Below are positions 1,844-60,703 of a DNA stretch of 64,000 nt, piece by piece. Source of the DNA: Phoronis australis (taxonomy: Eukaryota > Animalia > Phoronida); NCBI GenBank assembly GCA_002633005.1, contig NMRA01000022.1:1718639-1782638 (forward strand), given 5' to 3'. Each line of letters begins with the position of its first letter. Position 1 is the stretch's first letter. Made by a program: the position numbers and the translations under genes. The notes under the pieces are model-generated. The model was not told the origin of the DNA and did not search any database. It was given only the letters and a program-made list of their open reading frames with translations.

Positions 1844-2173
1844 TTGGTCCGTGGTCAGTGAACATAACTGACTTGAGCAACAACTTGACTATACAACGTG
1901 GCACAGACCTTTTGCTCGTCTACAACATTCCACGCAGCCTGGATTGCTTTACCAGTGGCGTTTACCCGAACGCCACCGTCGATTGGGGGACTTTGAAAGA
2001 GCAGGGCGTTAAACGCGAAATTGATTCAGGACCAAATCAGCATAGGAAGTTCGCAAAGAAGTTGACCGTTACTCCAACGACAGCGCTGCACAATAAGACA
2101 GCCACCTGTACTGCAAACAACACTCTCAACAAAACGCTTTCGGCAAGCAGCTGGCTCATTTTTAAAGTTGCAT
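1844..2173 (+). CDS. Ig-like domain exon 1 (of those in window)
   Basis: cag|TTGGTCCG acceptor, T|gtgagt donor, 330 nt; GPWSV...LDCFTSGVYPNATVDW...LTVTPTTALHNKTATCTANN. Confidence 0.88.
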
Positions 2174-5100
2174 GTGAGTAAGATCGTAATTGGTCGCAGA
2201 CTGAACCTGGACCTACCGTATGTTTGTACAGCGAGCCATGGGTTATGATCAAGAGTGTTTAGAATATAAAAAACGACTCTATAAATCACTCAATTATATT
2301 ACAAAACAAATATAAAATATATTGGATAAAACAAAATTTCAAGCAGTTTTAAAATCCCTAGGAAATATCAAATCGAAATGAAGCTCAGGATTTGACAACA
2401 TTTCCACCAAACTTATGGCCGGAATGAACTGGACTACTCCGGTAATTATAAACCCACTCGCTACCATCATAAATCAATGTTCTGCAAAAGGTTGTTTTAC
2501 AAGTGGATTTGAAAATTGCCACGGCTGTGCATTTATACATAGCAATTGAAATAGATGAACATAATTTAACTACTACAAGCCTAATCTCTCTAATTCTTGC
2601 TTCTCAACATTGTTTGAAAAAATGCCTATGATCTACCTTACTGCCAGCAATCTCTCTCTAATATTGAGTTAACGATGTGTTCATATGATAGAAAGATTCC
2701 AGGGAAAACGAAAACAAGTTGTTTGATCCTAAGAGAGTTTCGTGGGCGGTGCACCATAGGAGGCTGGGGGGCTATAGCCCCCACTTTTTTCAGTGCTGCG
2801 CCACACATGGTTCTGCGTGTGCATGCATACGACCGTTGAGAACGAACAATGCTTTGAGTCGCCGCACGCCTTTGTAGCTTAGTGTTCACGAACACAGCAA
2901 ATTGTGGAAGGGGAAAATCGTCGTTCAAATTCTTTGATTTGATAGGTACCTCCGTCGACATTTCGCTGTTTCGATATCCATTTCTTACTAACGGCTTCAT
3001 ATCAGTCTCTCGGCGCGTGGTGTGTATAATAATGTCGACCTACTTTTAAGTAGGTGAACCCGCGAGAGTATCCGGTTGATATGGCGAACCCTCGAGGCGT
3101 GTAAATTGTTCTCTCCGCTGTGTGACTGCGCTTCATGGCTGACAGTTGACCTATCATAAGCTCTGCCACTTGCGTAATGTCGACAAACAAACAATAAGTT
3201 TTACCCGCCATCGTCTTGTTTGCCGGGTAAAATGCTGCGTTCTGATTGGTCACTTAAGCAGTCACTCGAAATCGATAGGTCAAATTAGAACTGCAAGTAA
3301 ATACGGGCAAGAGAAAACAGCTCAGAAGTACTACAAACGTTACAAATGCTGCTAGTGGCGTAACTGGGGGCAGCGGGTCCAGTTCCAAAAAACGAAGTTG
3401 ATCGGCAACCGAAATGGGTCAAATCCCTGAGAGAAGACATATCGACCATGCGGTATTAATATTTCCGCCAACTTGGATGACATGATCAAACTTAATACGA
3501 TATGAAAATACAAGAAGCCAATTAACTTATCGAGATGTGATCTAGAAGGCAACTTACTGTCCTTGGTCGTATAACAGTAGTAAAATCATTCATTTTATGC
3601 ATACATATGCATATGCATACATGCATGCATGCATGTACATACAAGCATGCATGTATGTATATATATATATTCCACTGTGCTTTTTCTTTATTATATTTCA
3701 TCAATTTGTTATATACGTTATTAAACACTACCTCTCCTTCTCCATATTTCAGCCGGACCTAGGGTGGTAACTCTGTACTTCGAAGATTCCGTACAACAAA
3801 ATAGAAGCGTCCTGTGGAAGATTGCTGGGATAAACGTTACCATTGACTGTCGAACAGATGAGGTGTACCCAAACGCCACTATGGGCTGGTCCGTATCACA
3901 GGTGCAGAGCAATATAAGAGTGAATGGAACAGAGCCCAACCAAGTGTTCTCAATGGCTCTTACGTTCGTCACGACTCCACAGCCACGTCAGCGGAGGTAC
4001 ACGTGCTCTGCCAACAACACGCGCGCCCCGTCTCTTTCGACTTGGGCTTTCTTCACACTGAAGATACTGTGTGAGTTGACGTAGGTTTAAACATTGTTAC
4101 TCTTGAATGAATCAGCAAGTACGCCAGAGGTATTCTCACCCTTATAGCTAAGGTTATGTGAAAACCCAGAAAAATGTTCCATATCAGCATGTCTTAGAGA
4201 TTCAAACACAAACCTTTCAGAGACTGTACGTTGTCCATTGCTATCTAGAATCGTTTTAGATTATTGTTTTAAAATGTTNNNNNNNNNNNNNNNNNNNNNN
4301 NNNNNNNNNNNNNNNNNNNNNNNNNNNNNNNNNNNNNNNNNNNNNNNNNNNNNNNNNNNNNNNNNNNNNNNNAGGGGGGGGGGGGCTATCAAAATTGGTA
4401 CTTCCATGTACGGATTTGATTAAAGACCAAAATTTTGTCCAAGTTAAGACCAAAATCGGGCTAAGTAAAAACTGAAGAGGAAAATTCAGGAAAGACCATT
4501 TCACTAACTTAAGTCCGATTTTGGTCTTCAGTCTTAACTTAGACAGAAATGAAGACGGGATTTCACATAGGTGAGCATACAAGCTACGCTTTCACCACCT
4601 TTTGCAAATCCACATAACTAAGCGAGGCAGTGTGTGAAATACGGTTTCAAGAATCATCTTGGCCGTGAAACTCTAAACTGGGGTTTATTTACAACAATTT
4701 GGACACAATTGAAATCTCGTTTACGTGCAACGATCCTGTTGTGGGTGGAAAATATTTCACATGTGCGAGTAAGTCGCAATATATTGTCACTTCAAATCTA
4801 CGCCACTTTGCCAGGTCTCAAATGGCAAGTAGACTATCTTCAATTTGACATTATTTAGGGATATTAGATTGTGAAAATATCAACGGATGCTTTTCCTCAA
4901 CAGTTAGAAATGATAATCATAAACTTTGGTCACTTAGACAAAAAATCTTCTAAGTCTTAGCTTAGACCGATTTCTGTCTTAATTTTGGTCTTAAGATGCT
5001 TGATGAAACGACCTCAGACATTTTGATCTTGAGTTAACCCGATTTCGGTTTTAGTTACGACAGAAAAGGTTTCCTGAACTTGGCCGTGTGACCCAATTTA

Positions 5101-8100
5101 TTGGCAGGCTGGCGTTAGTCAAAAAATTCTTCAGATTTATGGTTTCAAGAAATTCTGACAATATTTAAACTCCATAATTTCTATGTCATTTGCCCAGCTG
5201 CGCTGACTTGTTGATACAGTGCTTGGCGCTTAGCTTGACGCCATAAGTTGCATTTGGGACTGTTATTGTCTTATTATAAGTCAGAAATAAAATGACACAC
5301 TGAGGCAAGAATATGTTACGAAAGGTCATGAGTCACTCAGATGCAAGTTAACAACAGTGATGAAATATTCGCAAACTAGGAAAACAGAACCAGAATACGG
5401 CGCATCCCCGTGGGCTGCTCATTCAACGCAGGTGGCGAAGGGTTATAACCCACCCAGTTCAATCATTCAGTTTTAGGGTCAGCTATTTGAGAGTCTTCTC
5501 ACCACCTTCATATTTCAGCTGGCCCTACGATACTAACTATTTCCTCCGAAAATTCCTTGATACCCAATAACAGCATCCTGTGGAAGATTGCAGGCCTAAA
5601 TGTCACCGTAGACTGTGAAACGGACAATGTGACCGGAAACGCCAGCATCGCTTGGTCCACAGCGCAGGGGCAGGGCAATGTAAGAGAAATCGGAACACAA
5701 CCCAATAAAAGATTTTCAGTAGCTCTTACTTTCGTTACGACTCCACATCCACATCTTCGAAGGTACACGTGCTCTGCCAACAACACGCGCGCCCCGTCTC
5801 TTTCTACTTGGGCTTTCTTCACACTGAAGATACTGTGTGAGTTGACGTAGGTTTTAACATTAATACTTACGAATGAATCAAAAAGTACGCCAGAGGTATT
5901 TTCACCCTTATAGCTAAGGTAATGTGAAAACTCAGAAAAATGTTCCATAACATCAGGTCTTAGAGATTCAAACAAACCTTTCAGATAAGATTCTTCGTCC
6001 ATTGTTCTCTAGAATCGTTTTAGATTATTGTTTTAAAACGCTCCACTATGGCAGGGGGGTATCAAATTTGGAACTTCCATGCACGGTTTTGATTAAAGAG
6101 CAGAAGTTTTGTCAAAGTTAAGACCGAAATTGGCCTAAGTTAAGACTGAAGACGAAAATTCAAAAAGACCGTTTCACTAACGTAAAGTCCGTTTTTGGTC
6201 TTCAGTCTTAGACAGAAATGAAGACGGGATTTCATATAGGTGAGCATATAAACTACGCTTTCACCACCTTTTGTAAATCCACATAACTAAGCGAGGCAGT
6301 GTTTGAAATACGGTTTCAAGAATCATCTTGGCCGTGAAACTCTAAATTGGGGTTTATTTACAACAATTTGGACCCAATTGAAATCTCGTTTAAGTGCGGA
6401 GACCCTGTCGTGGGTGAAAAATATCATTTCACATGTGCAAGTTAGTCACCATATATTGTCTGTTCGAATCTACGCCACTTTGCCAGGTCTCAAATGGCAA
6501 GTAGACTATCTTCAATTTGGCATTATTTAGGGATATTAGATTGTGAAAATATCAACGGACGTTTTTCCTCAACAGTTAGAAAGGATAATCGTAAACTTTG
6601 GTCACTTAGACAAAATATTAAAAGTCCTAGCTCAGACCGATTTCTGTCTTTATTTTGGTCTAAGAAGTTTGATAAAAAGGCTTTAGACATTTTGGTCTTG
6701 AGTTATCCTGATTTCGGTTTAAGTTACGACAGAAAAGGTTTCATGAAACGGGCCGTGTGACCCAATTAATTGACAGGCTGATGTTAGTCAAATTAAATTC
6801 TACAGATTTATGGTTTCAAGAAATTCTGACAATATTTAAGCTTAATAATTTCTAGCCATTTACCCAAATGCACTAACTTGTTGATGCAGTTCTTGACGCT
6901 TAGTTTGACGCCATAAGTTGCATTTGGGACTGTTATTATCTTATTAGAAGTCAGAAATAGAATGACACACTGTGGCAAGAATATGTTACGAAGGGTCATG
7001 AGACACTCAGATGCAAGTTAACAGCAATGATGAAATATTCCTAAACCCACTCAGCTATAAGTTCAATAATTCGATTTTAGGGTCAGTTATTCGAGAGTAT
7101 TCTTACCACCTTCATATTTCAGCTGGCCCTACGATACTGACTATTACCTCTGAAAATTCCTTGATACCCAATAACAGCATCATGTGGAAGATGCCAGGCC
7201 TTAATGTCACCGTAGACTGTGAAACAGACGACATGTTCGGAAACGCCAGCATCGGCTGGTCCAGAGCACAAGAGCAGGGCAATGTAAGAGAAATCGGAAC
7301 AGAACCACATAAAAGATTTTTAGCATCTCTTACGTTCGTCACGACTCCACATCCACATCTTCGAAGGTACACGTGCTCTGCCAACAACACGCGCGCCCCG
7401 TCTCTTTCGACTTGGGCATTCTTCACACTGAAGATACTGTGTGAGTTGACGTAGGTTTTAACATTGTTACTCATGAATGAATCAGTGAGTACGGATTAAT
7501 GCTACGTGAGAACCCAAAATATGTTCCGATTTGGCTAACGTCGGAACATCATATCTTAGAGGTTCTTAAGCGAAACTTCCAGATATTGCAATGTTCACGA
7601 TTTATAATTTCAGCGATATTCGCTTGAGCTCTATGCATCTTCTACCGTCTCTCGCAGCGCAACAGTAAGAGAAAAAAGAAAACTGATTAAAATGACTGGT
7701 ACTTATCGTGACTGTTCTTGTCTTAATTATCATAAGTCAGAAATAACACGACTCACTGTAAGAATATGTTGCAAAAGGGCACGACCCTCAGATGCAACCC
7801 AATAGCAGTGCTGAAATATACACACAAATGTTCTTGGAAAGCAGAGGGAGAGTGCGGAACACCGCTGTGAGCTGCTTATTCAACACAGGTGGCGAAGGGT
7901 CATGACTCATTCAGGTATGACTTACTTGACTTATGCCTATGGACACCTTAAGGGGCATAGGGGCTCCGTGTCTGCTCGCCATCTGATCCGGTTGGTAGCC
8001 TTTGTTAGGATCTTGTTCCATGACATGGAAATAGAGAGGTGTACCGATGATACAGTTCTTCTCAATTTTTTGCACAGGTCTGCCTCGCTTCTGTCTCCCT

Positions 8101-11100
8101 TGTGTGTTCCAGTTTAGGTGCATGCTTGGTGATATTTGTATTCGGCTTTCGCAGAGTGTGAGCAATCCAACTCCACTTCCTTCCCTTAATGTGGATCTCT
8201 ATGGCTTCTTGCCTGACTCAGTTCCACACACTTTCATTTGTTACTCCGTCAGACCACTTGATTTGCAGGATGTGATGCAAACATACGTTTGTTAACACTT
8301 AATGCTTGGTTAGAGTTTCATTTTCATGGCCCTCTTCACCACATCCAACAGAACGAACTTGCCAGATGGCCATTTTTAGGGATACCCATGGATCACTGTT
8401 GTATCGATTACCTTTTCATGCCCAAAAAATCGCTGGAATCCTGGTCTGTTACCTTCATATTTTAGCCGGCCCTACGGTGCTCACTATGCGCTTTGAAAAT
8501 TCCGAGCTACCAAACAACTTTGAGAAATTGGAAAGTCTGACTAAGTAACTTGGAGCTTAAGCAAATGACTCTAAGCAAGAGTCAACGACTTAATGTCCAA
8601 GCCATCCGATGAAGTAACAACACGACCGCTTTCGTTACGATAGGGTATAGGTTCCACAACTGGTGTACAAGTATCCGAAGCAACTTTAGGATCATCTTGT
8701 CCGGGTCAGAGACAACGTGACAGCTCAAACTCACACAAACAGATTTCACGTGTGTTGGCTTTGTCGGTCTACTTTCGTACATGAACACGACTACGACAGA
8801 TCAGATGATTGTCCTTAATTTCTAACACATGCGATCGGGTGCGCAACTGTTTTTACACTTTAGCCTTCTTTCACGCATTTCGTAAGTGATGCAGTTTTTG
8901 TACATGCACTGGCGTTCCCTCTCGGATTTCAGCACTCGGGGTTTTCACATGTTTGTCGTAGTAGCTTTGCGTGATTTGACGTTTGCGAATTTTCTCGGAA
9001 AGTTCCACCCTCGACTGTTTTGGGGTACACTTAGCAGCAGGTAAGAAGGACCGGATTTTGCGTAGTATCGGCCGTTCGATTGGACTTGTCCTCAGTAACT
9101 GAGTTTCTGTACTCCAACAGCGCGAGTTGTAGGTCGGGAGACCTTTTAAGTAACAATTTCAGAACCTATGGAACCAAAAATAAATTCTACATGACCTGTT
9201 ACAGAATTGGGTGAAACTTAACCAGCGGATTCATATCCACCTCAAACGACACGAACCACCGTAATACACTCATTGACCTCTCCATCTATTTTGATACCCC
9301 CTGAATTTTTTACTTGAAACATACAAAAAATTCAGCTTAAAATGACCTCTTTTGGTAATGGAACTATTCGTTGTAGACTGAGGACTGATATTTGCTACTG
9401 TGCAGGCAGGTATGATGTTCATTCCCCAGTCCATGAATATAATTTTCAAAGAAATAAAACTACCCCTTTCGCTGGGGTACTCGTTTTGTCGTACCACCTT
9501 TTAAGTACCCAAACTCAAACTAAGTTATTGGTAAATATATAGCAAGCTGTAACAAAGTGACTCTTTTAATCTGTAGACCATGAATAAAAGTTACAACAAT
9601 AAAGGCCAGATGTCTTAGTCTTTTTCGACTTGATGGTCAGAAATTTAACTGGAAGTGTGCATTTTTGGTTGTCAGGTGTCAAGTACCTGTTGTAATTGCT
9701 CATTAATATAAAATACCAACAGTGACTGAAACTTTTAAATGGGCAGTAGAAACATTATTTCACTTGCAGAATTATTGTTATTACATATTTCATTACATAT
9801 GGCCCAAAATACATGTATGAAGTTACAAATAACATTATACAGTGTCGCCCTTCTCTTCAATGATAAATAGGCAAGTGTAAACTAAGCAAGTTGATGAACC
9901 TATGGAGAGTGGAGAAATTCCAAGAATGACCACCGGTCTGATTAAGCCTCACACTCCATTAAAAGGAAATTCGTCTTCAATGGCAATGGCATTGCATCAT
10001 TTACAAATTCTTTCACTGTATTCAATGAACACATGATATTGACGACTCCATAATACAATTCGGTTACTGGTCCGATCATTAAATGGTGACGGCTTTTTTA
10101 AAAGTGCTGTTTCCAGAAGGAGGAAATCATTTTGGAAGTTTAATAACTCTCTCTTAAAAACTGAGTATATTGCTGCGGTCAAGGATACTATTAAATTAGT
10201 TAAACAGCAGGATATGAGTGACGACATACAGACAGTCGATAGGACAAGTGATTCAGATTTGACAAATATCTATAAATAATCAACATTTTCTTGAAACGGT
10301 GTTGTTGGAGATTCGCGGCAAAACAATTTCATTTCCTACTTACTTAAAAAGAAAGAGTGAAAGAGCTGAACAGCAACTTATCAAAGAAATAAGCTTGTTG
10401 AAAAAAGTCTAAGCCTTGATAGGGGACTACTGGAACAAAAAACAATCAACTTGCCGACCTAAGGCAGAATAAGTTTAGGGGTCTTGTAACTAGGTCGAGA
10501 GTAAGATGGATTGAAGAGGGTAAAAAGCTTTCCAACTATTTTCTTCACTTGGAATATAGGCATTACACAAGTAAGTTAATGTCCTTTTTGTGGACAACGC
10601 TAACTCGATTTTGAAGAAGCATTTGATTCATTGTCGTGCAATTTTAGTCAAAAAAAACTTTTAATTATCTTTTCTTAATTTTGGTTGGTCGATCAGAAGG
10701 TGGGTATAAGTATTTTATAGTAATATTATGTCGTGTGTTGTCGTAAATGGTCACCAATCTTCCTGGTTCATTATTTCGCGTGGCTGCAGTCAAGGTAATC
10801 CTTCGTCTCCCTACATTTTCATATTCTGCGCGAAGATTTGGGCGTATTTAATCAAGAATAATAAAAATATTGCAGGTATAGTTGCAGTAAACAAAAAATG
10901 TTTGATTTTAAAATATGCGGACGACACATCAATTACTTTGGTAGGGTCAAATTTGTCGTTGACTACCACATTGAATGTACCACATTTGTTTGCTAGCGTC
11001 TCCGGTCTCCAAGTAAATGTGGATGAAACAAAAACCATATGGTTTGGATGTAAAACCGGTAGTGACGATGTGATTCCTACAAAAGAAAGTCTGTCTTGGA

Positions 11101-50100: not shown

Positions 50101-53100
50101 GGAGGTCCGACACCATAATTTCCCCCCGTCATCTTCGGTCGACAACCTAGTACTTGTCCATGCACCTCCATCGTCACTAATTGTACCACTTGACAACACC
50201 TTTACCTCCGCTCGTAGGAAAGTACACATTGTTGGGCAATGAAGCCGGCATCAGTCCATCGTCCATGGTCGTCGCCTATTTCGCATCTTGCTCCATCGCC
50301 ATCATAGGCACGCAGAGTTTACTGCTAGGGGAGCAAATAGTGTACAGGCAGCCTCCAAAAACTTACCTTTCCACGCTTCAACAAAATTACGTAAAAAAGT
50401 TGTCCGCTTATTTTTGTACTTTTTCACTTCATTACAGAACCAAAAACATGGGCTGCCCGAATCATTTTTTGAGCCATGTACAAAAGTAAGGTAAGATACC
50501 CCTACTGCGGGCTGTAAAATCTGGAGAAACGTGAGGAGGAGGATCATCACCTCAGAATCCGGCCCTTAGGAAAGTAAACATTATTGAAGGGGAGGGGGAG
50601 ACCCAGCTGAGACTTTTGCGCCCCTTCCCCATTGGCACCATTGCCCCTTCCCTCCATTCTCCAGATGTCGCCCTATTCCACCCGCCATACGTCGCGCGGA
50701 AGCAAACATCAGTATTGATAGGGACCACAACACCCCACAAACGACACAACCGTACACCCTACAAACTTGACTGTTTACAAAACTGTATTCTCACAATCAT
50801 CACAAACACCCCCACAAACTCTCCACAAGACACCTCCACAAATTCACAACTCTTCACAAGCCACCAGAGAAGCCACAACACAACAGAGATAGGTGTCGCT
50901 TGTAACTAGTTACATACCAGGCGGGTGTTCAGTTGGCCCAAGGACCTATGCTAGGACCTAGCTAAAATCTAGTCAAAGTCACGTGTTCATTTAAAGTACA
51001 CGGCAATATCTCACGTAATCCCGCGAAGTCTTGCTTTTTAACGAGGTCCTAGCGTTGCTGAACGGGAGGCAGCATTAGTAAACACTAGCCGGTCAAGTTC
51101 AATACAGGAACACAGGGGCATTACTGGAATAATTTTTCCCAAACAAAGGCGCCGACTCTCTAGGTGAAGGCTGCGTGCAGAATAAATTGATTGGCACCAG
51201 GCCCGACTGTGCCGCCGATAACAAGCCTACAATTGGAAAGATAAGTTACCCTGAAGTACTGGGCGTGTATTCGGTGGTCGGTGCCAAAATCTGTTGAAAC
51301 TGTGGAAACACAGGACATGTGTTGGCAGTGAGCAGTATGAGAGAACCACTGTACCTACAAGCATTTCTCAGTTAAAAACTGGACTCGGCAAAGTAAATGC
51401 TGATATCCAGTGCACAGAGCACCAAAAAGGTGACAAACCATAATGACACCGAGCAACGCAGTTCCCATGTGACATTCATCCTACTTATAGAGTGAAGTCG
51501 GGGAAAACCATGAGAACTATTCTCGCCAGTCTATGTACATGTACTAGTCACCATCGGTATGAGCGACATCATAAATGTGCTATTCGACATACAACCTCCG
51601 AGGAACCCTAACCGTTCATGTACCATCAGTAAATACGACCACATACAGACTTCATAGTTTCAAACATGTCTCCTCTTAGTGACGGAACCCTCCAGACGGT
51701 GCCATTAAAAGTTTATATGAGCTTTATGAGCTTATCATCCTTCAAGTGTCTTAACAGAATATTAAAACCGGATTCTCTGCTGCAAGTATGTGTATACGTT
51801 CCTTAGTTAGTCTTTGTAAACTTCATGTAATGAATGTCCCTGCTCTCAATCCTTTTTTCGTGTATAGTTATCACATAATACTACTTTGTGATGCTGACCT
51901 AATTGTATCACAACTTCTTCTAAATACTGTAAATATTTTAATGCAACTCTTGCTTTAGATCGACTACCTACGGGCTAGTGTTCACCGTTCGTGTTGCTTT
52001 GAGTATAAATAAACAGACTATGTATGTATGATGTACCAACATGTATGTAAAACCTAACTTGCTAATGCCTAAGTCACGCCCACATACGTATCTCTCACAT
52101 GATTCTCGTAATCATACCTACTGAGATAGCGACACCTGTTTCTGGTGTGTTGTGGAATTTGTAGTGTTATGTATTGTGTAGGGGTGGTGTTGTCAGAATA
52201 TGGGGAAAGTGTGTGAATTGTGGGATGTTGTTTCGATTGTGGGGGATGTTGTAGATGGTTTTAGAGTGTTGTAGTCATTGTTTGTGTGCGGAGGGGTGGG
52301 GGGGGGGTTGTGGTGTGTGTGGGGTGTTGTTGGACCTATACGCTTCCATACATCATAACCCGAGTAACCATGTTACAACTAAGTTTGTAGTCATGGAAAG
52401 CGAGAATGAGAGCTAAAGGCTGAGATTTCATGTCTGTATTTCTCAAGTGAACTATGGCTGTAAGCTACATGTAGCAGCTGAACGTGTGAAAATATGAATT
52501 GGATAGACCAGGGTAGCCGCTGCTTAGCTATGATTTACTTGAGCCAGGAAGCTCAGCTCTTTCCTATCTATCGGTACTGGCCATAAGGTAACAACAACCA
52601 TTCGGTAACAGCAGTGCTACGGTGACTGTTCCGATTCATTTCTAGTTGGCCCTAAAAGAGCAGATGCCTTAGTCGACGACAAGCAAGTAAGTCTCGTCCG
52701 CGTAAACGAAAGCGACTCAATCACATTGTCGTGTAGAACCGATGACGTATTCCCCTCGGCCGTAGTGGAGTGGTCGCACGGGACTGATAAGGCCTCGTAT
52801 CGCCAGGGTATGCGATATTATTCACGCACGACGCTATCCGAGGTATCCAAGGGAATGAACCGCCGCAATGTTACCTGCACTGCAAAGCGTCCTGATTCAG
52901 TCAGTTCAGTTAAGGCAGAGGTTACACTATACGTTACACGTACGTAATGCGGTGTGCGCTAATCTGAAAAAGTTTCGAATGTTCGCTGTATTTCCGTATC
53001 GTGTGCATAGTTTAGACATAGCTGCTCAAATATTTTCACGCTCATCAAAATTCTAGAAATGCCCAACTTTTCTGGATTTTCTTCTTTTGAAAATTGTGTG

Positions 53101-56100
53101 CACTTTGCTAAAAATGTGAATTGCTCTTCTTTCGTTGTGGTACGAATCTCATGACTCCAATGCGTCGACACATCTGAAGTAACGTGTTAGCCCGCAGATG
53201 AGTCACTTACCCAGAAGCAGATAGAAAAGCTCTTGCTATTTCACATTGCATCATTAGGTGAATGAGGACTTGATCTTTGTAGGACTTCTCAAAAAGTTTT
53301 AGCATCACTATAATATAATCTTTTCTTACGCCACCATTTTCACATTGATAAAAGGTGTTCAAAATTTGAGGATATTGCCGAAAATTGAAAATAAGTCTCC
53401 AAACAAGATGTACATGTTTAATAAGAGAAGTTAATTGCGTGTCTCATCATAAATCTTGCGAATCAAATAGCAAGTTCAATTAAGAAAAAAACATAACGAA
53501 ATTAAATTATAAAAATTAAAGTTGTGTGCCACCTAGTGGAAGAATTAAGTAGTGGCCTTTTACATTGTACAACAGACACTGCATCTCTTTGTTTTTTTAA
53601 TGACATAGTTGGGAATATTATTTAGGAATTCATTCAGGATATTAAATGTGGAGTACTGGTGTGCCACAAATTCACATAATTAATATACAAGGACACAAGA
53701 GCTAACTTTGTGTAAAAAAAACAAGGAAACAAGATTTTCAGATTTATTGAATAAAAAACATTTCATCTCAAGAAATCAATTCAACGTTTGCAGATCATCC
53801 TCCAGGGCTCTGGATCCCTAGAAATTGGGGCCGAATATCGACCCCATTCTCTTCACAAAAATATTCAAAACTCACACGAAATTACCCTCATCAGGTCGAA
53901 AAATTCGCCTGCGAACAATCAAACATTCCCCTCATGCTTTGAGACAACCTCAAAAATATCGTGATGACTTTAGTCACGAGGCCGCCCGACACCAGAAACG
54001 TCATAAACTGGTTTCCTTATAAAACAAGTGTCACTTACAGGAGTGTTAGAACCATTTTTGTGATATTACACTCTCGCGTATTGACACGCAAAACCAAAAA
54101 CCTCCATGTGTCCTTGGCTGAAAGTGGCACCCAAACAAGTTCTACAAGAGGAGAAATATGAAAAACCATGCAGTAGAGCACAGAAACATACAGAAAAGTG
54201 TCTTTTCAATGGTGCACTTTTCTTAGAAACAGTCCCAAGTCAGACCGCACTTGAAATCATCTCGGAAGTATTTGTGTTCTTCTGACGGTGACTAGAGGTT
54301 GGTACTTCATAATGACTTAATGTTATATACAGTGTACATACTGATTAGTGAATTCATAAAAGAGTTTAGAATCCCCTCTGAGTAAAAAACGCCGCGAAAA
54401 CTTACCTTTTAGGCGGTACAGGCAGCGTTCCATCGGGTGAGTGAGGGCACTGTTGCTCGTGCAACTTGTGTCTTAAAGAATTTTAGCAAGAGCACAGGGT
54501 AGTGCCATCCACTGTATGCTGATCCTACAATGCTCCACGTTCCATCTAAATCCCTTTAGGGACGGCGCATACATGAACTGACTACTATAGGAGAATAAAG
54601 CCTAATTAGATTTTTGTTCATTAACGTTAACTAAAAGGATACTAGGCCCTGTTTTGATGACTTCAATCGATGATCGTTCTGTCACCTGCTGATGCATGGT
54701 CGGCGCACTATAGGAGGCTGGGGAGCTACACCCCCACTTTTTTCACTGCTGCGCCGCCCATGTGATGCAACATTGGCGCCAATCGTGGAAATCAAAGACA
54801 TGAATCAACTAAAACTCATCCTCCCCATGTCACAGATTGGACCTAATGGTCCTTGGTGGGTGGCATTTTCCCACAGTTTCCGCGAAATTCGCTAAAAGCA
54901 TAGGACACGCTTTCCGGTTTAGCAAACTTTGAAAGGTTGCTGAGGATCGGTTACAGAACATTATTTTGTGTCGGAGAACTGGATGTGAAAGCCGCTTTTA
55001 GAATCTGTTAATAAGCCAAAACCATGGGCTGCGCAGCACTGAAAAATGTGGAGGCTAAATCCCCCACCCTCTGTGGTGCACCAGCGATAGACCATGGGCG
55101 GTGCAGTACCGAAAAAAATGGTGCTATATCCCCCAGTCAACTATGGTGCGCTGCCCAGGAAAACCAGGTTTGGTATCCTTTCAAGCAGAAGTGCGCGTTG
55201 AATAAGTCANAACATTGGCGCCAATCGTGGAAACCAAAGACATGAATCAACTAAAACTCATCCTCCCCATGTCACAGATTGGACCTAATGGTCCTTGGTG
55301 GGTGGCATTTTCCCACAGTTTCCGCGAAATTCGCTAAAAGCATAGGACACGCTTTCCGGTTTGGCAAACTTTGAAAGGTTGCTGAGGATCGGTTACAGAA
55401 CATTATTTTGTGTCGGAGAACTGGATGTGAAAGCCGCTTTTAGAATCTGTTAATAAGCCAAAACCATGGGCTGCGCAGCACTGAAAAATGTGGAGGCTAA
55501 ATCCCCCACCCTCTGTGGTGCACCAGCGATAGACCATGGGCGGTGCAGTACCGAAAAAAATGGTGCTATATCCCCCAGTCAACTATGGTGCGCTGCCCAG
55601 GAAAACCAGGTTTGGTATCCTTTCAAGCAGAAGTGCGCGTTGAATAAGTCAAAGCAGAATGAAGTTCATTAACGAACTAATTCAGCGCGTTGATTAATCA
55701 CATGTCAACAAGCAGAAAGGCACTCGTTTAAGAACCCATTGGCTCTTTATATGGTAGACCTCACAGTCAGTTGAATATATGCACAGTAATATGCGACACG
55801 ATAAACAAGCTCCGCCTATTACGAAATAAAGCCCACACTCATAACGTTTCGACAATATTTTCTTTCAGATTAGAACATGCTGTTATAAGTGCCTTTTGCA
55901 CTTAGAGGGACACCTTAGGAGGCCGTTGATATCTTTAATTCCTTCCAACCCGAATAAATACTTCCGTAATCAAACTTCGTTCAGTTCCTCAAATCGGCAA
56001 ATGCACATTTTTACACTGTGCTCCCTCCTATTTTACCGCGCCCGGCATGAGCGGGCGCAGTGTTAAAATGGCCAGTTGCCAATTTGGGCAACTGAACGAA

Positions 56101-59100
56101 GGTCAGCCAAAATGTTTGAGTATTCATTAGGGTTGGAAGGAATCAAAGACATGGACGGCCTCCTAAGGTGTCTTCCTGTGCGCAAATGCTACTTATGAAA
56201 ACGCGACTTTGATATTTTAATCAGATTGAGCCATAATTCGTCGAAAAGCTTCCAGCGTATGAAGCTCATGCTATAAGATCTTCATCGTCTCTACTGGGGC
56301 CAGCGAGAGACAACGGTCACTATCTACTATACGACTGTCAGAACTATCCATTATTCGCTTGCTTAATTATTCCTTTTACAAGTAAATGGATTCCTTCTTT
56401 GATGCAGTATTGTCCGTTGCAGATGGCCCCAAGTCAGTGATAGTAACTGATGACAAGCAACGGAAATTCAGCGAAAACGCTGACATGGATGTCATCACGG
56501 GAGTAACGTACACTCTGAATTGCCTCACTGATGACGTGTGGCCTGGAGTGCACATTGAATGGCACGGGGCGTCTGGTCTGGGCGAGCAGATGGATGTGAG
56601 ATCGCAACAGTCGAAGACCGGAATACGAGTATCAACGCAACTGAGCATGGAGCCAAACATTTCAAGTGACGAGCAGGTGTTGTGGTGCATCGCCGTAAAC
56701 TCTGACAATGCTGGCATATCAGCAAAAGCAAAACTTACGCTGAAAATAATACGTGAGTGAAATAATATTTCAGTAAGAAAACAATGAGAAATTGGTCAAG
56801 CGTATTTTAAAAAGCCAAGGCCAAATGTGTTGTCCTTGCGGACTTTACTGGCGAATGAATGCATGCGGCAAAGTACAACGATGTTAAAACTATCCAACGC
56901 ATGACGATACTATGTGCTAAAAGGGACACCGAGAAATGTATACGGATGTTTGATTAGGCCACGGGTTCACAGATATCGAGGTACATAGCCACAAATCGAC
57001 CAGCTCGTTTTAGGTCGTAGGTGTGGGCTCGATAATGACTTCCTTTCTAGCACACAGCATCATCTGATGTTAGATTGTTTTGTATTGTTGTATTCTGTTC
57101 CTTGCTACGTCCTCAACGAAACTTTCATTGCCAGTTCTAGAACTGAATGTCAGATATATGCTAACCTATTTTTAAACTGGTAGAAAAGTTTTCATAAAGA
57201 GAATGAAAATTTCGATTTTCAGGAAACGCATCGTCAGTCAACGAGTTAGATATTAAACATGCTGGACAATAAATAACTGGATGTCTTTGTTCTACTGAGA
57301 ACGTAAACCACTTGGCTGGAATAATTTCTTGTACCATAACGATACCTGTAACAAAAAAGAAAGTGAAACTTAAAGGTCGTTGCAATAAGGCTGCAATAAC
57401 ATCAGCAACTACTTACGTAGGTAACTAAGCACCAGAAATTACTTACTGGTATGTAAACAAGGCAAAAAAACGCTTTCCTTGAAATGGTAGAGTTCTTTCC
57501 ATGAAAATGTTTGTTTCAGTGCCTACAACGTGAAAATACGTACACCTTGCGAATGCTTTTATCTTACTCAATAACTCGAGTTAAAAGGATAATAAACCCT
57601 GTTTTGACGATTTCAACCATTACCGTCATTCTGTCACCTGATGCATCGTTGACGTCAATCTTGAAAGCTAGAGGCAAGAAACAACTAAAAACACACACCC
57701 CGTATCTCACGTGATATTGTTAGATATCGTGTTCCTTGTTGGGTGGTCTTTTCCCACAGTTGCCCTGCATTTCGCTAAAACCCCATTTAGCAGACTTTGA
57801 AATTAGTTTTCAAATTTTTGGCCAAATATTTGAGGGTCACAGTATTGTTTTGTTTCTGGGAACTGGATGAGAAAGTAGCTTTTAGTATCTGTTTTAAAAT
57901 TTAAAATGGGCCAAAAGAGCGGATTTGGTATTTTAAGCAACAGGTACCAAAATGTCCAAAAGAAGTTATTAATGATGCAAAATGTTGTTATTATGAAATT
58001 ATCTTTTATTCAATCGTGACATCACTGGCAGATTTGATTTTAAAGGAAATTATTACCTTTTCAAGGTATAATGGACAATTAGAAAAAATGAGCAACTAAA
58101 AATACTGCAGACCAGAATCAACTATGCTTTTGACCTATATTCCTTTTCTCCACATGGCCATCGCTACCTGCCTACGCCCCTGCCTCCCTCCCTCACTCCC
58201 TCCGTCCTTCCTTCCCTCCGATTTTGTCTGTCGCACTCTCCGTGCCTCCCTCCCTCCTTCAAGCTGCCTGCCTCTCCCACGCCTCATCCACTCTTCTATC
58301 ATACTTTCATCCCTCTCTACTATAGGAAAAAAATTCTGATAATCTCTCGTCCTAACAGACTAACCTCAAGAGTGTAATGTATGGACGAACTCCAGATAAG
58401 CTCTTCTCTTCAAGCTTCTCTGGTGGCTCTGGGAATATCTCAGTTTTATAAAGCATATTTCCATATGTTGCAGAGTCAGAAGATGTGCTCATGCACGCTG
58501 ATCTTCAAAACTGGGCCGTCCCTTTGTCCGTGTTCCCGGCCGTTGCGCTGCTTTTGGGGGTGCTCGTAGCTGTGTACAAGCGCATGAAAGTGAAGAACAT
58601 ACTGCGGCGGCATGGTCAACTCGAACATGAGTTACAGCAATGTTTGAAAGAAGGAGATGATGAGACTGCAGACGTTGCAATGAATAAGTACAAGGCGTTA
58701 TTGAGTAAAAACAAGACACTGGTTAGACCCAATGAAGAACTGGTCAAAAAGGTTGAGGACAAACTGGAGACGTCAAACACTGAAGTAAACGACCTCTTGA
58801 CCAAGGTTAAGAAGGACATCGGTGTAGCAGTGGCTAGCGGTGACGCCACACAGATGGAAGCAGTGCTGAGAGGTCTGAAGCAGTTCTGCACCGACCAAGG
58901 AAGTCACTTGAGTATGCAGAAAGTAAAAAAGGAAATGTACAAGCTTCAAGACGAGATCGAGAAAGTGAAACCGACGGCAATCAAATTCAACGAAGTGGAT
59001 TTCCCCCAGCCTGAAAAGAAAACGGTGTTCACGCCAGACGTTGGAGCTGTAAAGAGACCGTCATCAACATCGGGTCGGGAGCCGGGTCAACTTGACTTAA

Positions 59101-60056
59101 AAACACAGTGTGATGCTCTAGTGAAGGGATTGTACGCAGCTATCAAGGGCGGTGACCAGACTGCAATAAAGGAATCATTAGCTAACTACCTGGAGTTTGT
59201 TCAGGAAAATAAAGGAGCGGTGAGGAGGGATGAATATTTGATAGCGCGTGCAAAGGCGTGTTCGAGCCAACAGTTACAGGATTTACACCAAGAACTCGTG
59301 TGCCGCCTGAGGGAATCCATGGCCGCAGCGCAACCTGCGGGGTCAGATATTGCCTCTGGACTCCAGTCTTACAAGGATTTCGTTCGCAAAAACGAGCGCT
59401 ATATCCCAGCGAACACAGGTCTTATTGCTGAGGCTGAAAGCATGCTTACTCGTTGCAGGAGTGACGCAAAGAGGCAAGCGATGTCTTCCAGATCGAAAAC
59501 AGAAGGAACGTCTGGCGGTTCTTTGTTAGAGCCAGAGCGCGAATTAAGGAAACATGTACTAAACATAGACACAGTGACGTTTTCATCTATGAAAGATTAC
59601 AAGAAACCACCCCAAATTGTGCACAGGGTCGTCAAAGCTACTTTACTTATACTGGGAGACTCCGAACAGGATATCGAGAACTGGGAAACGTGCCAAGATC
59701 GGCTTGCCGTAGTTCCTTCGCCCAACAATCGCGGTGGTTTGTTCAACCGCATAACACAGTTCAAGGTACAGTCAGTTAGTCCCGAAATTGCTGCCAGAGC
59801 AAGATGGTACTTAAAAGGTCTTTCAAAAGAGTTCGTTGAAATGGTCAACTCCGGAGCAACAATTTTTTACGAATGGGTGATGGCTGTGTGCCAAAGTTGC
59901 GGCAGTCAGTCTCCAGGAGATTATCAGGCAAAGAAACGAAACAGAAATAAGTCAGATAGTCCGAGTGATAATTATAAGTCTTTACATCCTGAGCATAAAA
60001 AACGACCTAGTGGGCACAGTCCACCTCGTCGTCGAAGCAACGTGCCCTCAATATAA
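1844..60056 (+). CDS. Multi-exon gene (5' end outside window) for a giant type-I membrane protein: at least 13 Ig-like domains, TM helix, helical repeats, dynein-MTBD-like C-terminal domain. Exons: 1844-2173, 3753-4070, 5519-5836, 7123-7440, 23823-24161, 30785-31129, 32571-32885, 39788-40090, 47486-47815, 48213-48533, 49464-49784, 52646-52939, 56423-56752, 58474-60056
   Basis: All 13 internal exons have YAG acceptors, GT donors (GTGAGT, GTAAGT or GTACGT), lengths divisible by 3 and phase 1 at both ends. Each begins with xGP and carries the Ig pattern C-x-T/S...P/G-x-A/V-x-I/V-x-W...LT...C-x-A-x-N. The terminal exon is also phase 1 and in frame. Joining of all exons into one mRNA is inferred. 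Confidence 0.85.
2310..2690 (+). mobile_element. Decayed CR1/L2-like LINE fragment (N-terminal RT region)
   Basis: Frameshifted remnants resembling SSGFDNISTKL, IINPLATIINQC, LKIA, PISL and LFEK. Confidence 0.5.
3596..3670. repeat. Low-complexity (CATA/TGCA/TA) microsatellite
   Basis: atgcatacatatgcatatgcatacatgcatgcat...tatatatat seen directly. Confidence 0.8.
3753..4070 (+). CDS. Ig-like domain exon 2
   Basis: tttcag|CCGGACCT, T|gtgagt, 318 nt; VTIDCRTDEVYPNATMGW...YTCSANN. Confidence 0.9.
4279..4372. other. Assembly gap (run of N)
   Basis: 94 N; single Ns also occur at 16340, 34093 and 55210. Confidence 0.98.
4430..5085. mobile_element. MITE-like element with imperfect inverted ends, duplicated with the intron (second copy about 6105-6755; related fragment about 46610-46670)
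   Basis: aagttaagaccaaaatcgggctaag at the left and its imperfect reverse complement ttaacccgatttcggttttagttacgacagaaa at the right; dispersed copy elsewhere in the window. Confidence 0.45.
5519..5836 (+). CDS. Ig-like domain exon 3
   Basis: tttcag|CTGGCCCT, T|gtgagt, 318 nt; VTVDCETDNVTGNASIAW...YTCSANN. Confidence 0.9.
7123..7440 (+). CDS. Ig-like domain exon 4
   Basis: tttcag|CTGGCCCT, T|gtgagt, 318 nt; paralog of exon 3. Confidence 0.9.
7917..8300 (-). mobile_element. 3' fragment of RTE-clade LINE
   Basis: Minus strand reads RKWSWIAHTLRK...LNWNTQGRQKRGRP, the typical RTE C-terminal motif, with a short taagtcaagtaagtca tail. Confidence 0.75.
8466..8548 (+). pseudogene. Truncated Ig exon (5' part only) with intact acceptor
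   Basis: ccttcatattttag|CCGGCCCT matches acceptors of exons 2-4; GPTVLTMRFENSELPNN is homologous to exon 3/4 starts, similarity stops at about 8518 and the frame ends at TAA 8546-8548. Confidence 0.75.
10020..12655 (+). mobile_element. Decayed L1/Tx1-clade LINE ORF2 (APE end, RT, C-terminal Cys/His region)
   Basis: GYWSDH, FWKFNNSLL, EIRGKTIS, RSRVRWIEEG, DFEEAFDS, GCSQGNPSSPYIF, YADDT, FQFRIRHR, FCNKAPKTLSHLF; many stops and frameshifts; A-rich end. Confidence 0.85.
13597..16510. mobile_element. Non-autonomous TIR DNA element with 6-bp target-site duplication (GTGCCT)
   Basis: Left tgatgcgccgtgaaatgtaacaattttgt vs right reverse complement taatacgccgtacaatgtaacaattttgt; GTGCCT at 13591-13596 and 16511-16516; subterminal aatgtaaca repeats. 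Confidence 0.75.
13960..15260 (+). mobile_element. DIRS/Ngaro-type retroelement 3' fragment with tyrosine recombinase C-terminus (about 13975-14337)
   Basis: CPVAHLRTYL...GPLF, then after a frameshift YNSHSFGIGSATSAAALG...IQRMGRWKTDAV, matching HSFRIGxAT and GRWxSxA YR motifs; pyrimidine-rich downstream region; 3' boundary approximate. Confidence 0.75.
16789..21434 (-). mobile_element. TIR DNA transposon with long subterminal repeats and a decayed PIN/5'-nuclease-like + Cys-rich ORF (about 17830-18950)
   Basis: Ends GGGAGCC...GGCTCCC with several hundred bp of inverted similarity; minus-strand remnants HEEASSIIVQQ, VSDDKNVF, HVL*GCNAMACYYGVGK, LSPTTETFREN..RAQYQ..W, CDCKG. Confidence 0.75.
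19496..20980. mobile_element. Internally deleted Kolobok-like element: THAP-transposase 5' part (+, about 19647-20450) facing a KolX/P2X7-ballast-like ORF (-, 20760 to about 20450)
   Basis: Perfect 38-bp TIR gctactccggaagtgacgttttaggaggcaagcatttc at 19496-19533 and 20943-20980; THAP motifs FP..W..VCGKHF..LKQDAIPS; KFIV..CQVC..CVAGH..W zinc ribbon; minus strand YMFEP..WCKCTVCVVMPTSMECLCCSE. Confidence 0.75.
23823..24161 (+). CDS. Ig-like domain exon 5
   Basis: ttttag|CCGGCCCC, A|gtaagt, 339 nt; FTCLTGEVWGGARVSW...VTFTP...VECRAVN. Confidence 0.88.
24258..24530 (+). mobile_element. Partial HINE (Helentron-type) copy
   Basis: Begins ttttatgcgccaacatatacatatatgggt, homologous to the element at 60704; contains the cccaagtggcaatttt repeat motif. 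Confidence 0.55.
25141..25861. mobile_element. Harbinger-like MITE with 3-bp TSD CAG (related partial copies at about 46090-46580 and 50920-51069)
   Basis: TIR cctcccgttca(t/g)taacgctaggacc at both ends, flanked by CAG at 25138-25140 and 25862-25864; internal segment repeated at 46.1-46.6 kb. Confidence 0.75.
25921..28435 (-). mobile_element. 5'-truncated CR1/L2-group LINE (RT pseudogene)
   Basis: MDLSKAFDCLPHSLLISKL, GVPQGSILGPL, YADDNT, NPDKFQ, NLTFDSHISNICKRAS; minus-strand aataaa plus (cttgaat)n tail near 25921-25950. Confidence 0.88.
28450..30000 (-). mobile_element. Decayed Ty3/Gypsy gag-pol fragment
   Basis: Gag LDNFYIRLRDITNRCE; RT VEKELERMEAEGII, VRLYGDYRITVN, IDMPRAYQQ, LFRYKRLPFGI, MLDDVLVTG. 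Confidence 0.85.
30785..31129 (+). CDS. Ig-like domain exon 6
   Basis: ctctcag|GTGGACCC, T|gtaagt, 345 nt; LKCITDLSFPNVNMNW...LEPTRALH..LICNASN. Confidence 0.87.
32571..32885 (+). CDS. Ig-like domain exon 7
   Basis: tttcag|TTGGGCCT, C|gtgagt, 315 nt; FKCTSSETWEIASVSW...ISFTPNAEQHNTNVKCSAHN. Confidence 0.9.
34756..35270. mobile_element. Two decayed, head-to-head THAP-domain starts (DNA transposon remnant)
   Basis: Minus strand MKSCIWRG.SNS...F...LCAAHFEESCF; plus strand SCVLRCSN...IRKRWVVAIRRDKGKYFRV. Confidence 0.55.
36491..39251 (-). repeat. About 130-bp direct repeats (36491-36621, 39123-39251) flanking about 2.5 kb; possible decayed LTR element
   Basis: tcaagagaaaaacaacaccat...actactctacactactcaaca occurs twice in the same orientation and starts TGTTG on the minus strand; internal coding remnants not confidently recognised. 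Confidence 0.4.
37609..38540. mobile_element. Young MULE-like foldback MITE: about 270-bp near-perfect TIRs and 9-bp TSD GGATGTGCG (older relative at about 55830-56327)
   Basis: 37609-37880 is the reverse complement of about 38272-38540; GGATGTGCG at 37600-37608 and 38541-38549. Confidence 0.88.
39788..40090 (+). CDS. Ig-like domain exon 8
   Basis: tttacag|ATGGCCCC, T|gtaagt, 303 nt; VTIDCFTPLLYPDATIQW...YKCSAKN. Confidence 0.9.
41000..43352 (-). mobile_element. Highly decayed Ty3/Gypsy element (5' LTR-like segment, PBS, gag remnant)
   Basis: Minus strand starts TGTAGTG at 43352; PBS-like TGGCGGCGAGG near 43228; gag LRTVAAACNFHDTDREILTQ..GCLSTQLR; left boundary uncertain. Confidence 0.55.
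43450..44251 (-). mobile_element. HINE (Helentron-type) element with about 145-bp internal tandem repeats
   Basis: Minus strand begins tttttatgcgccc like the 60704 element; periodic gccactagggg/gccaccaggtgg motifs. Confidence 0.65.
47486..47815 (+). CDS. Ig-like domain exon 9
   Basis: ttttag|ACGGACCA, G|gtgagt, 330 nt; LTCTTDMSWKTVDILW...LVLKPQSTWHGDVVTCSAFN. Confidence 0.9.
48213..48533 (+). CDS. Ig-like domain exon 10
   Basis: ttttgcag|ATGGGCCG, C|gtgagt, 321 nt; LSCTTDYVYPWADLVW...KTCVAT. Confidence 0.85.
49464..49784 (+). CDS. Ig-like domain exon 11
   Basis: tttcag|ACGGACCG, T|gtaagt, 321 nt; ARCVAEDYSPGVTIDW...LHGSKVTCKATN. Confidence 0.9.
50719..52339. mobile_element. Element bounded by degenerate CA-rich/TG-rich inverted repeats
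   Basis: tagggaccacaacaccccacaaac...taggtgtcgct at the left and agcgacacctg...gtgtggggtgttgttggaccta at the right. Confidence 0.45.
52646..52939 (+). CDS. Ig-like domain exon 12
   Basis: ttctag|TTGGCCCT, C|gtacgt, 294 nt; ITLSCRTDDVFPSAVVEW...NVTCTA. Confidence 0.87.
54769..55651 (+). repeat. 441-bp direct duplication separated by a single N (probable assembly overlap artefact)
   Basis: 54769-55209 and 55211-55651 differ at only about 2 positions; N at 55210. Confidence 0.85.
56423..56752 (+). CDS. Ig-like domain exon 13 (membrane-proximal)
   Basis: gttgcag|ATGGCCCC, C|gtgagt, 330 nt; TLNCLTDDVWPGVHIEW...LSMEP...LWCIAVN. Confidence 0.9.
58170..58320. repeat. CT-rich low-complexity tract
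   Basis: cctccctccctcactccctccgtccttccttccc seen directly. Confidence 0.7.
58474..60056 (+). CDS. Terminal exon: TM helix (about 58512-58577), helical repeats (about 58620-59450), dynein-MTBD-like domain (about 59541-59894), basic/Ser-rich tail
   Basis: gttgcag|AGTCAGAA phase-1 acceptor in frame with the 523-aa ORF; WAVPLSVFPAVALLLGVLVAVY followed by KRMKVK (positive-inside); stop TAA at 60054-60056. Confidence 0.9.
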
Positions 60057-60656
60057 CCTGCTTTCAGTTACTGAGGCATTTTGAGCATAAATGAGTTTTG
60101 ACAATTTTTATTGTTATTCGGTATTTTAAGGTTATGCAAAGCTTTACTGACAAGTGTATGATTTAGCCAAATACCCCGAAAATTTAGAATTTAATTTAAG
60201 TGTACATTTTCTGCAACTGGAAAGCCTGTAGAATTTGATTTTTAAGTTTTTACCAAACTGGCCATATTTTTTAGGAAACCTAAGCGAAAAAGAAAGGCAC
60301 ATTTGTAACCAAACCGGTGTATCAATAGCACGACCAAATTTTGCTGAATGCACAAACTTAAGTCCTACATGACCTGAAGTGGGAAGGCGTTACCCCTTCA
60401 ACTTCACGGGGAAAAGATCTGGCCCCCGCTTCATACAGCACTTTCATGACTAGATGCGTCTACATAAACAGAGAGGTCTAGTTACTAGGTAGTGCGGAGA
60501 TTTCGGAAAAAAATCCCGTAACAGAACAACAATTGACGGTGTTTCAGAAATTTTCCGCAAAAGCTCCCATGGTCGTCCTTTTGCCACCATTTTCTCCAAA
60601 GGAGCGCCCAGCAAATGGAATATTTAAAAGCTAAGAATAGAAATGATGATATTATC

Positions 60657-60662
60657 AATAAA
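60657..60662 (+). promoter_or_regulatory. Candidate polyadenylation signal
   Basis: First AATAAA I found downstream of the stop codon, about 600 nt away; no transcript evidence. Confidence 0.25.
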
Positions 60663-60703
60663 TTGCTTTACAAGTTGAAATCCTTTTATGAAGAATGGTC
60701 TCA

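Follow-up and report, generated by a model that had tools for sequence, protein, structure and literature searches.

A predicted multi-Ig transmembrane receptor of Phoronis australis with a C-terminal domain homologous to the dynein microtubule-binding domain

A 64-kb stretch of the Phoronis australis genome, hereafter the window, contains an expressed gene for a predicted single-pass receptor in which at least 13 immunoglobulin (Ig)-like domains precede a transmembrane (TM) helix and a cytoplasmic tail. The last folded domain of that tail is homologous to the microtubule-binding domain (MTBD) of dynein, as established by profile searches and by the predicted structure. The Ig+TM+MTBD architecture has no counterpart among 150 relatives of the domain that were examined, and the copy in the window has lost most of the tubulin contacts that could be mapped from yeast dynein.

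Gene structure, transcripts and surrounding DNA

The + strand carries thirteen intact Ig-like exons, from 1844 to 56752. All 13 are bounded by AG..GT, are in phase 1/1 and have lengths that are multiples of three; joined to the terminal exon (58474-60056), they form a frame of 1,920 aa with zero internal stops. The initial annotation had proposed at least 13 Ig exons in frame with a TM helix and a cytoplasmic region of about 490 residues, and the model agrees with it on each count. The features, numbered from the first letter of the window, are:

962-1003, + strand: candidate 42-nt phase-1/1 exon, Thr/Pro-rich (AG..GT, open frame)
1844-2173, + strand: Ig exon 1, C1/C2-set-like (Pfam, splice sites, frame)
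3753-4070, + strand: Ig exon 2 (Pfam, splice sites; 79% identical to exons 3 and 4 at the nucleotide level)
5519-5836, + strand: Ig exon 3 (Pfam, splice sites; 92% identity to exon 4)
7123-7440, + strand: Ig exon 4 (Pfam, splice sites, identity to exons 2-3)
8466-8545, + strand: decayed 5' piece of an Ig exon, a pseudo-exon (52-68 nt are 78-79% identical to the beginning of exons 2-4; stop at 8546)
23823-24161, + strand: Ig exon 5 (no Pfam Ig match; G-P/C/W/C pattern, splice sites)
30785-31129, + strand: Ig exon 6 (C2-set_2, E 4.4e-6, above the cut-off)
32571-32885, + strand: Ig exon 7 (Pfam, splice sites)
39788-40090, + strand: Ig exon 8 (Pfam, splice sites)
47486-47815, + strand: Ig exon 9 (Pfam, splice sites)
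48213-48533, + strand: Ig exon 10 (no Pfam match; pattern, splice sites)
49464-49784, + strand: Ig exon 11 (Pfam, splice sites)
52646-52939, + strand: Ig exon 12 (Pfam; 3' end coincides with the loose end of reads entering exon 13)
56423-56752, + strand: Ig exon 13 (joined to 58474 by RNA reads; depth of 10-18 in X1 and X2)
58474-60056, + strand: terminal exon, coding part, which encodes the TM helix and all of the cytoplasmic tail (RNA joint, open frame)
58518-58574, + strand: predicted single TM helix, followed by basic residues (KD 19-residue mean 2.5)
58593-59498, + strand: four predicted helical repeats of ~60 aa in two pairs, with a low-confidence linker between them (AF2 helices)
59535-59906, + strand: MTBD-fold domain with short flanking helices (family search, profile, AF2, structure comparisons)
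59907-60053, + strand: basic, Ser-rich C-terminal tail, probably disordered (net +8 over the last 52 aa; one degenerate S-x-V-P motif)
60057-60680, + strand: 3' UTR, end approximate (AATAAA at 60657; stranded depth 7-22 in X1 and X2 to the bin ending at 60693)

Each phase-1 exon encodes one canonical Cys-Trp-Cys Ig domain (13/13): two Cys are found in every exon, and the G-P, C, W, C pattern is invariant across the set. Pfam Ig families match 11 of the 13 at E<=1, with one passing the curated cut-off. A joint profile of the 13 exons matches 2,088 PDB sequences at E<=0.01, titin and neurofascin included, and its best match is C. elegans SYG-2 (E 2e-19). A six-frame search with the same profile found no further intact Ig exon copy in the window. 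The likeness to nephrin/SYG-2 and Kirre-type receptors, which derives from the best PDB match, consists in a type I layout and a chain of CD80-like C2-set Ig domains. Nephrin has an Ig+FnIII layout and a Tyr/PDZ tail. The protein of the window differs from nephrin/SYG-2 in its at least 13 Ig domains and its folded tail of 492 aa, and in that no FnIII domain follows its last Ig exon, which RNA reads join directly to the exon with the TM helix.

No signal peptide or start codon exon of the receptor gene was found within the 64-kb window. Together with the candidate exon at 962-1003, this suggests that the gene likely begins upstream. Exons 2-4 (window 3732-7493) are recent tandem duplicates of 79-92% identity, and the duplication includes about 1 kb of intron at 89% (4381-5376 versus 6054-7046). 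Judged from these sequences, the Ig ectodomain seems to be changing in length through exon duplication.

Raw RNA reads of P. australis from runs X1, X2 and X3 were aligned to the locus, 18-19% of each run being read. The joint 56752->58474 (GT..AG), for which a check against RNA had been proposed, is carried by 16 stranded reads in X1 and 19 in X2. It was the sole joint listed, and its intron has zero RNA depth outside repeats. At 52939->56423, the loose ends of reads entering exon 13 coincide with the end of exon 12 (4 in X1, 5 in X2). By these two junctions, the tail and the TM helix share one transcript with no fewer than two Ig domains. The earlier proposal of a single spliced Ig, TM and tail protein is thereby borne out at both of the junctions open to testing. 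In X1 and X2 the sense-strand depth over exon 13 and the terminal exon is 10-40; X3 gave no coverage of the gene, and a further run, X4, gave repeats only. Since X1 and X2 are positive and X3, from the same study, is not, tissue- or stage-specific expression is suggested.

With RNA covering 2 of the 13 introns, one may ask whether only the last few Ig exons are spliced to the tail, the upstream ones forming a separate tandem gene or belonging to other isoforms. Introns of up to 16 kb full of transposon debris, the recent duplication of exons 2-4 and the pseudo-exon at 8466 would all fit such a mosaic. All exons nevertheless have strand, phase and the G-P start in common, and no TM, stop or signal-peptide exon intervenes among the listed open reading frames of at least 60-70 aa, so that we consider a mosaic very improbable; even then, RNA would link the MTBD and the TM helix to two Ig domains.

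The window as a whole is animal-like, with 41% G+C, long introns and transposon debris. A THAP-domain open reading frame at 19676-20671 (+ strand; Pfam E 3.4e-11) is overlapped by a P2RX7_C-like frame at 20368-20820 (- strand; E 4.8e-5), and the pair is likely a DNA transposon inside a 16-kb intron; a second THAP remnant lies at 35116-35343. A broken LINE-like reverse-transcriptase element occupies 10000-12459 (+ strand), with RVT_1 at 10710-11132 (E 7.5e-8). Two 442-bp copies that are 99% identical occupy 54769-55653; one N (55210) stands close to where they meet, and the arrangement may be an artefact of assembly. A high-copy repeat directly behind the 3' UTR (60700-61760) reaches an RNA depth of about 2,800, strongly on one strand and in all runs, and related pieces occur at 43468-44200. 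An imperfect palindrome of about 310 bp (70%), MITE-like, lies at 55885-56196, with related copies at 37600-38540.

The cytoplasmic tail and its dynein-related domain

The frame of the terminal exon is open over 534 codons. Apart from the predicted TM helix, no window of this frame exceeds 1.6 in hydropathy, and 492 cytoplasmic residues follow the helix. Three of the six pairwise comparisons among the four helical repeats reach p<=0.001. The repeats have no specific structural relative, the matches being generic helical bundles at Z<=8.3. Compared with the repeat found upstream of the domain in the motor-less family described below, they give a weak match by hhalign (E 0.001, probability 21%), scoring 20.1 where none of 30 column shuffles exceeded 10.7; by hmmsearch the same comparison gives 3.1 bits, which is not above shuffles (11 of 270 scored shuffles were as high). 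Strict ITIM and class I PDZ motifs are absent from the cytoplasmic tail, and Rfam gave no match.

The peptide at 59541-59894, in which the initial annotation had recognized the residue spacing of a dynein MTBD, is present in the terminal-exon translation. As a single sequence the domain has no Pfam MT match at E<=1 and no dynein match in the PDB at E<=10; PDB matches to cytochrome b562 fusions were rejected as chance. A profile built from 70 short relatives together with the window domain, by comparison, matches the yeast dynein MTBD across the whole domain (E 1.3e-15). All 60 profile matches listed are dynein-sized chains or dynein fragments, one row of 4,583 aa being differently named. Contamination of this 71-member profile by dynein fragments was rejected by a control: a profile of 27 KY-like proteins that omits the window sequence matches the yeast dynein MTBD at E 1.4e-9. 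PF12777 is matched by 28 of the 71 members of the first alignment at E<=0.05. The Pfam comparison proposed at the outset fails for the single sequence; the homology emerges from profiles of homologues.

Structure prediction leads to the same result. The AF2 model of the domain has a pLDDT of 88.9. Foldseek, which had been suggested as a further check, aligns the model to mouse dynein 3err with a TM-score of 0.78 and an rmsd of 2.0, the top three matches having TM-scores of 0.76-0.79. With VIA, mouse dynein 5ayh is matched at Z 17.5 and rmsd 1.9 over 123 residues; the first unrelated row has Z 5.2. By Atlas features the domain reaches 0.96 with clusters in which PF12777 makes up 50%; the recognition value, 1553, is low. 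The core P, W, F and W residues of the MTBD fold are retained. The resemblance exceeds chance because of the intermediate homologues and the structure.

Like the dynein MTBD (PF12777 MT; mouse 3err/5ayh, yeast 6kjn, human 8i3j), the window copy has six helices in the same fold and both flanking helices, and the P-P, L-L-G, W and Y-x-W pattern is common to the two. It differs from dynein in having no AAA ring and no long coiled-coil stalk, in its low identity (14-19%), in the missing Pfam MT match, in an insertion after helix 3, in keeping one of five mapped contacts and in being part of a membrane protein. The description of a motor-less protein therefore holds: the spliced model runs from the Ig exons to the TM helix, the 492-aa tail and the stop, with the AAA+ motor ring and linker absent, and Pfam finds no dynein families in the terminal exon. 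The antiparallel coiled-coil stalk (CC1/CC2) is also absent around the domain. In the AF2 model a 10-residue entry helix follows a low-confidence spacer, an exit helix of about 19 residues comes after the domain, and the protein ends about 50 residues further on. The spacer, which is Gly/Ser-rich, interrupts the helix leading into the domain, and 2 of 123 relatives have an equally rich one.

Similar folds occur in other solved structures: 9ya2_L, a chain of the Toxoplasma intraconoidal microtubules (Z 9.7), 7jrj_I (and 7jtk_C) of the Chlamydomonas radial spoke head (Z 7.6 and 22% identity, with 74 residues superposed at rmsd 1.7) and 9e5c_2e, a T. brucei doublet chain (Z 7.4). By their modelled likeness, these chains may be solved motor-less MTBDs. 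In the accessible portion of one report, ICMAP2 is a globular domain bound between protofilaments, and the word dynein is used twice there, both times in the reference list (PMC12819142). By its size 9ya2_L may be ICMAP2, as a lead only; the order of codes in the same portion gives 9YA2 as ICMT-2 (PMC12819142), and the entry title reads ICMT1.

A motor-less family carrying the domain

A phmmer scan of 1.84 billion representative proteins with the MTBD-like domain as query gave 207 relatives at E<=1e-3 and 21 at 1e-10. The best identity was 52%, reached by a fragment of 69 aa; for relatives aligned along most of the domain it was 38-39%. The 150 relatives examined, with Pfam thresholds of 1e-5 and 1e-4, are at most 2,303 aa long, and none has a dynein motor family in Pfam; PF12777 is above the thresholds in 11 of them. 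In 127 of 149 relatives no more than 60 aa separate the end of the domain from the C-terminus; in the window copy the distance is 50 residues. The window copy scores 121 bits with the family profile, a value that is not independent because the profile was seeded with the window sequence. Named sources among 30 relatives checked were molluscs, annelids, a flatworm, amphioxus, tunicates and one glaucophyte. Eight of the 149 relatives with a profile match have two or more matched stretches, with up to five tandem MTBD-like copies (P0012, P0108).

The closest sequence relatives, at up to 38% identity, are hillarin/KY-like proteins (Transglut_core PF01841 and Ig-like_KY PF23265), in which an MTBD-like domain is likewise C-terminal with helical repeats in front. 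KY-type Ig-like repeats occur in 41 of the 150 relatives, often along with a transglutaminase-like core. A link to KY/hillarin proteins had been suggested in the initial annotation, and both this count and the dynein match of the profile made from KY-like proteins alone (E 1.4e-9) bear it out. The hillarin/KY-like proteins differ from the window protein in lacking a TM helix, many of them starting with Met-Gly, in having their own transglutaminase-like core and KY-type Ig-like repeats, and in the equivalent of yeast E3122, which is present in 41/41 and lost in the window copy. Neither Transglut_core nor Ig-like_KY is matched by Pfam in the 13 Ig exons or the terminal exon. The transglutaminase-like region of KY-like relatives also matches FAP246 (7n6g, E 2.6e-16), a Chlamydomonas central-apparatus protein, as a second ciliary link for the family.

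A predicted TM helix is found in 10 of the 150 relatives (hydropathy and inspection), with CLCA/VWA, CD20-like, mucin-like or Cys-rich ectodomains. Examples with a predicted TM helix, repeats and a C-terminal MTBD-like domain are the Branchiostoma CLCA-like XP_078700756.1, CD20/MS4A-like XP_066272931.1 and mucin-like XP_066263927.1, and Phallusia CAB3263194.1. Their ectodomains are not of the Ig superfamily, and they keep 2-4 of the five contacts. A search for other Ig+TM+MTBD proteins had been called for, and by Pfam none of the 150 carries Ig-superfamily domains. The initial annotation knew of no characterised Ig-superfamily receptor with such a tail. Among the relatives the Ig ectodomain is indeed unmatched; the membrane-anchored MTBD tail as such is less singular than that remark implies, being found in those 10.

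Another 35 of the 150 start with Met-Gly, many with Met-Gly-Cys, and 28 of these 35 have S/T/A/C at position 6, which after Met-Gly is a myristoylation signal. The sequences suggest that these relatives are lipid-anchored. The recurrence of TM and Met-Gly relatives makes a membrane anchor with a C-terminal MTBD a recurring design. On a quick tree of 126 columns, in which 62 of 140 branches were open, the 10 TM relatives require at least 2 and at best 4 label changes. The window domain falls in no supported group and has an end branch of 0.83, so the tree does not show the donor of the window copy.

Word-index searches with the domain, the 71-member alignment and the terminal exon found no orthologue of the receptor, negatives that are weak because one such search missed family members known from phmmer. 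In the literature covered, from which subscription journals are largely absent, we found neither motor-less dynein MTBDs of animals nor the dynein-like domain of hillarin/KY-like proteins described, nor any Ig receptor with an MTBD-like domain. The wider animal family of motor-less MTBDs appears to be undescribed.

The tubulin-contact face and the possible role of the receptor

In yeast dynein, K3117, E3122, R3124, R3152, R3159 and R3201 form salt bridges, and changing each of the positive residues lowers affinity more than two-fold, according to the available part of that study (PMC7042235). These positions were placed in the window copy by counting along the profile alignment, at 16-19% identity, and the spacing agrees with the numbers given in the same part (PMC7042235). 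K3117, E3122, R3124, R3152 and R3201 correspond to T, S, K, E and M, so that one of the five is kept; the position of R3159 falls inside the insertion and is ambiguous, with an Arg nearby. Among 142 relatives (8 of the 150 were omitted, their aligned stretch being <85 aa), a mean of 2.6 of the five is kept and 11 score 1; P0056, for example, retains four and P0029 three. The equivalent of E3122 is present in 137 and that of R3124 in 120. The net charge of the H1/H3/H6 face is 0 in the window copy against a family median of +4, and 6 of the 142 are as low. The RNA reads list no variant at the mapped contact codons, which makes an assembly error unlikely.

The available text of another study describes the yeast mutant K3116A/K3117A/E3122A/R3124A as weak-binding (PMC4046564); three of these four positions (K3116, K3117, E3122, R3124) differ in the window copy. 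Dyneins differ among themselves at the contact positions. Dictyostelium dynein uses other H3 residues, according to the part cited above (PMC7042235). DNAH6 retains four of the five mapped contacts in the profile alignment. On this residue mapping, the case for direct microtubule tethering is weaker for the window copy than for most relatives. The initial annotation had proposed such tethering, and this part of its proposal is weakened because one of five contacts is kept and the face has a charge of 0 rather than +4.

Clustered receptors could still act as a passive tether, holding cortical or ciliary microtubules through weak MTBD contacts and the basic tail. The family-wide retention of the E3122 (137/142) and R3124 (120/142) equivalents speaks for this, as do the repeated joining of the domain to membrane anchors (10/150 TM, 35/150 Met-Gly), the similar fold of the non-dynein chain 9ya2_L on a Toxoplasma microtubule (Z 9.7, rmsd 3.4 over 123 residues) and the net charge of +8 in the C-terminal tail. 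The Met-Gly relatives are not independent cases because they are largely related to each other. At its contact face the window copy itself ranks with the most eroded members, a stalk that would set a high-affinity state is missing, and the Gly/Ser-rich spacer breaks the helix into the domain. A tether is possible in our view, if doubtful.

At the other extreme, the terminal exon may have been captured for its TM helix and repeats, the MTBD-like part being a functionless, decaying passenger. The long end branch, the loss of a nearly invariant glutamate and the negative word-index searches for an orthologue are consistent with decay. So are the RNA variants of the terminal exon, 4 of 7 of which change a residue; all four lie outside the domain, however, and none is listed inside it, in what is a small sample. 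The open frame of 534 codons, the retained core residues and the confident AF2 model also argue against an inert passenger, which we regard as improbable.

The reading that we place first, with the balance for and against it about even, is an expressed nephrin/SYG-2-like receptor with a captured family cassette, the last domain likely docking a partner other than tubulin. The chain of at least 13 Ig domains would provide adhesion or recognition and would cluster the single-pass protein at cell contacts. The tail would have arrived as a one-exon cassette of repeats and MTBD from the motor-less family, whose domains lie at the C-terminal ends of hillarin/KY-like proteins and of other membrane-anchored proteins of invertebrates, rather than directly from a dynein gene. 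The fold would have been kept as a protein-docking module for cortical scaffold or signalling proteins as its tubulin face drifted. By analogy with 6l4p, by its entry title an MTBD in complex with light chain 1, the fold can bind proteins other than tubulin. Receptor clustering and the +8 charge of the tail could restore weak microtubule binding.

A broader proposal, which we consider rather unlikely as a whole, is that an overlooked family of motor-less dynein tips was repeatedly added to membrane anchors as direct membrane-to-microtubule linkers, and that the Ig receptor itself grips microtubules. If so, the anchors used would be N-terminal acylation, CLCA-like, MS4A-like and mucin-like proteins and a giant Ig receptor, and the engagement of the cytoskeleton by hillarin/KY-like proteins would be explained.

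The dynein MTBD, which is usually regarded as belonging to the motor, is found here as a mobile module of invertebrate proteins, tied by RNA to a predicted cell-surface Ig receptor. The domain, of about 125 residues, is easily expressed, and the family offers a natural series with one to five retained contacts for defining what the isolated fold requires to bind tubulin. If the window copy does not bind, the fold has been reused for docking; if family members bind microtubules, they would constitute a new class of membrane-microtubule linkers and provide a testable lead for the hillarin/KY-like proteins.
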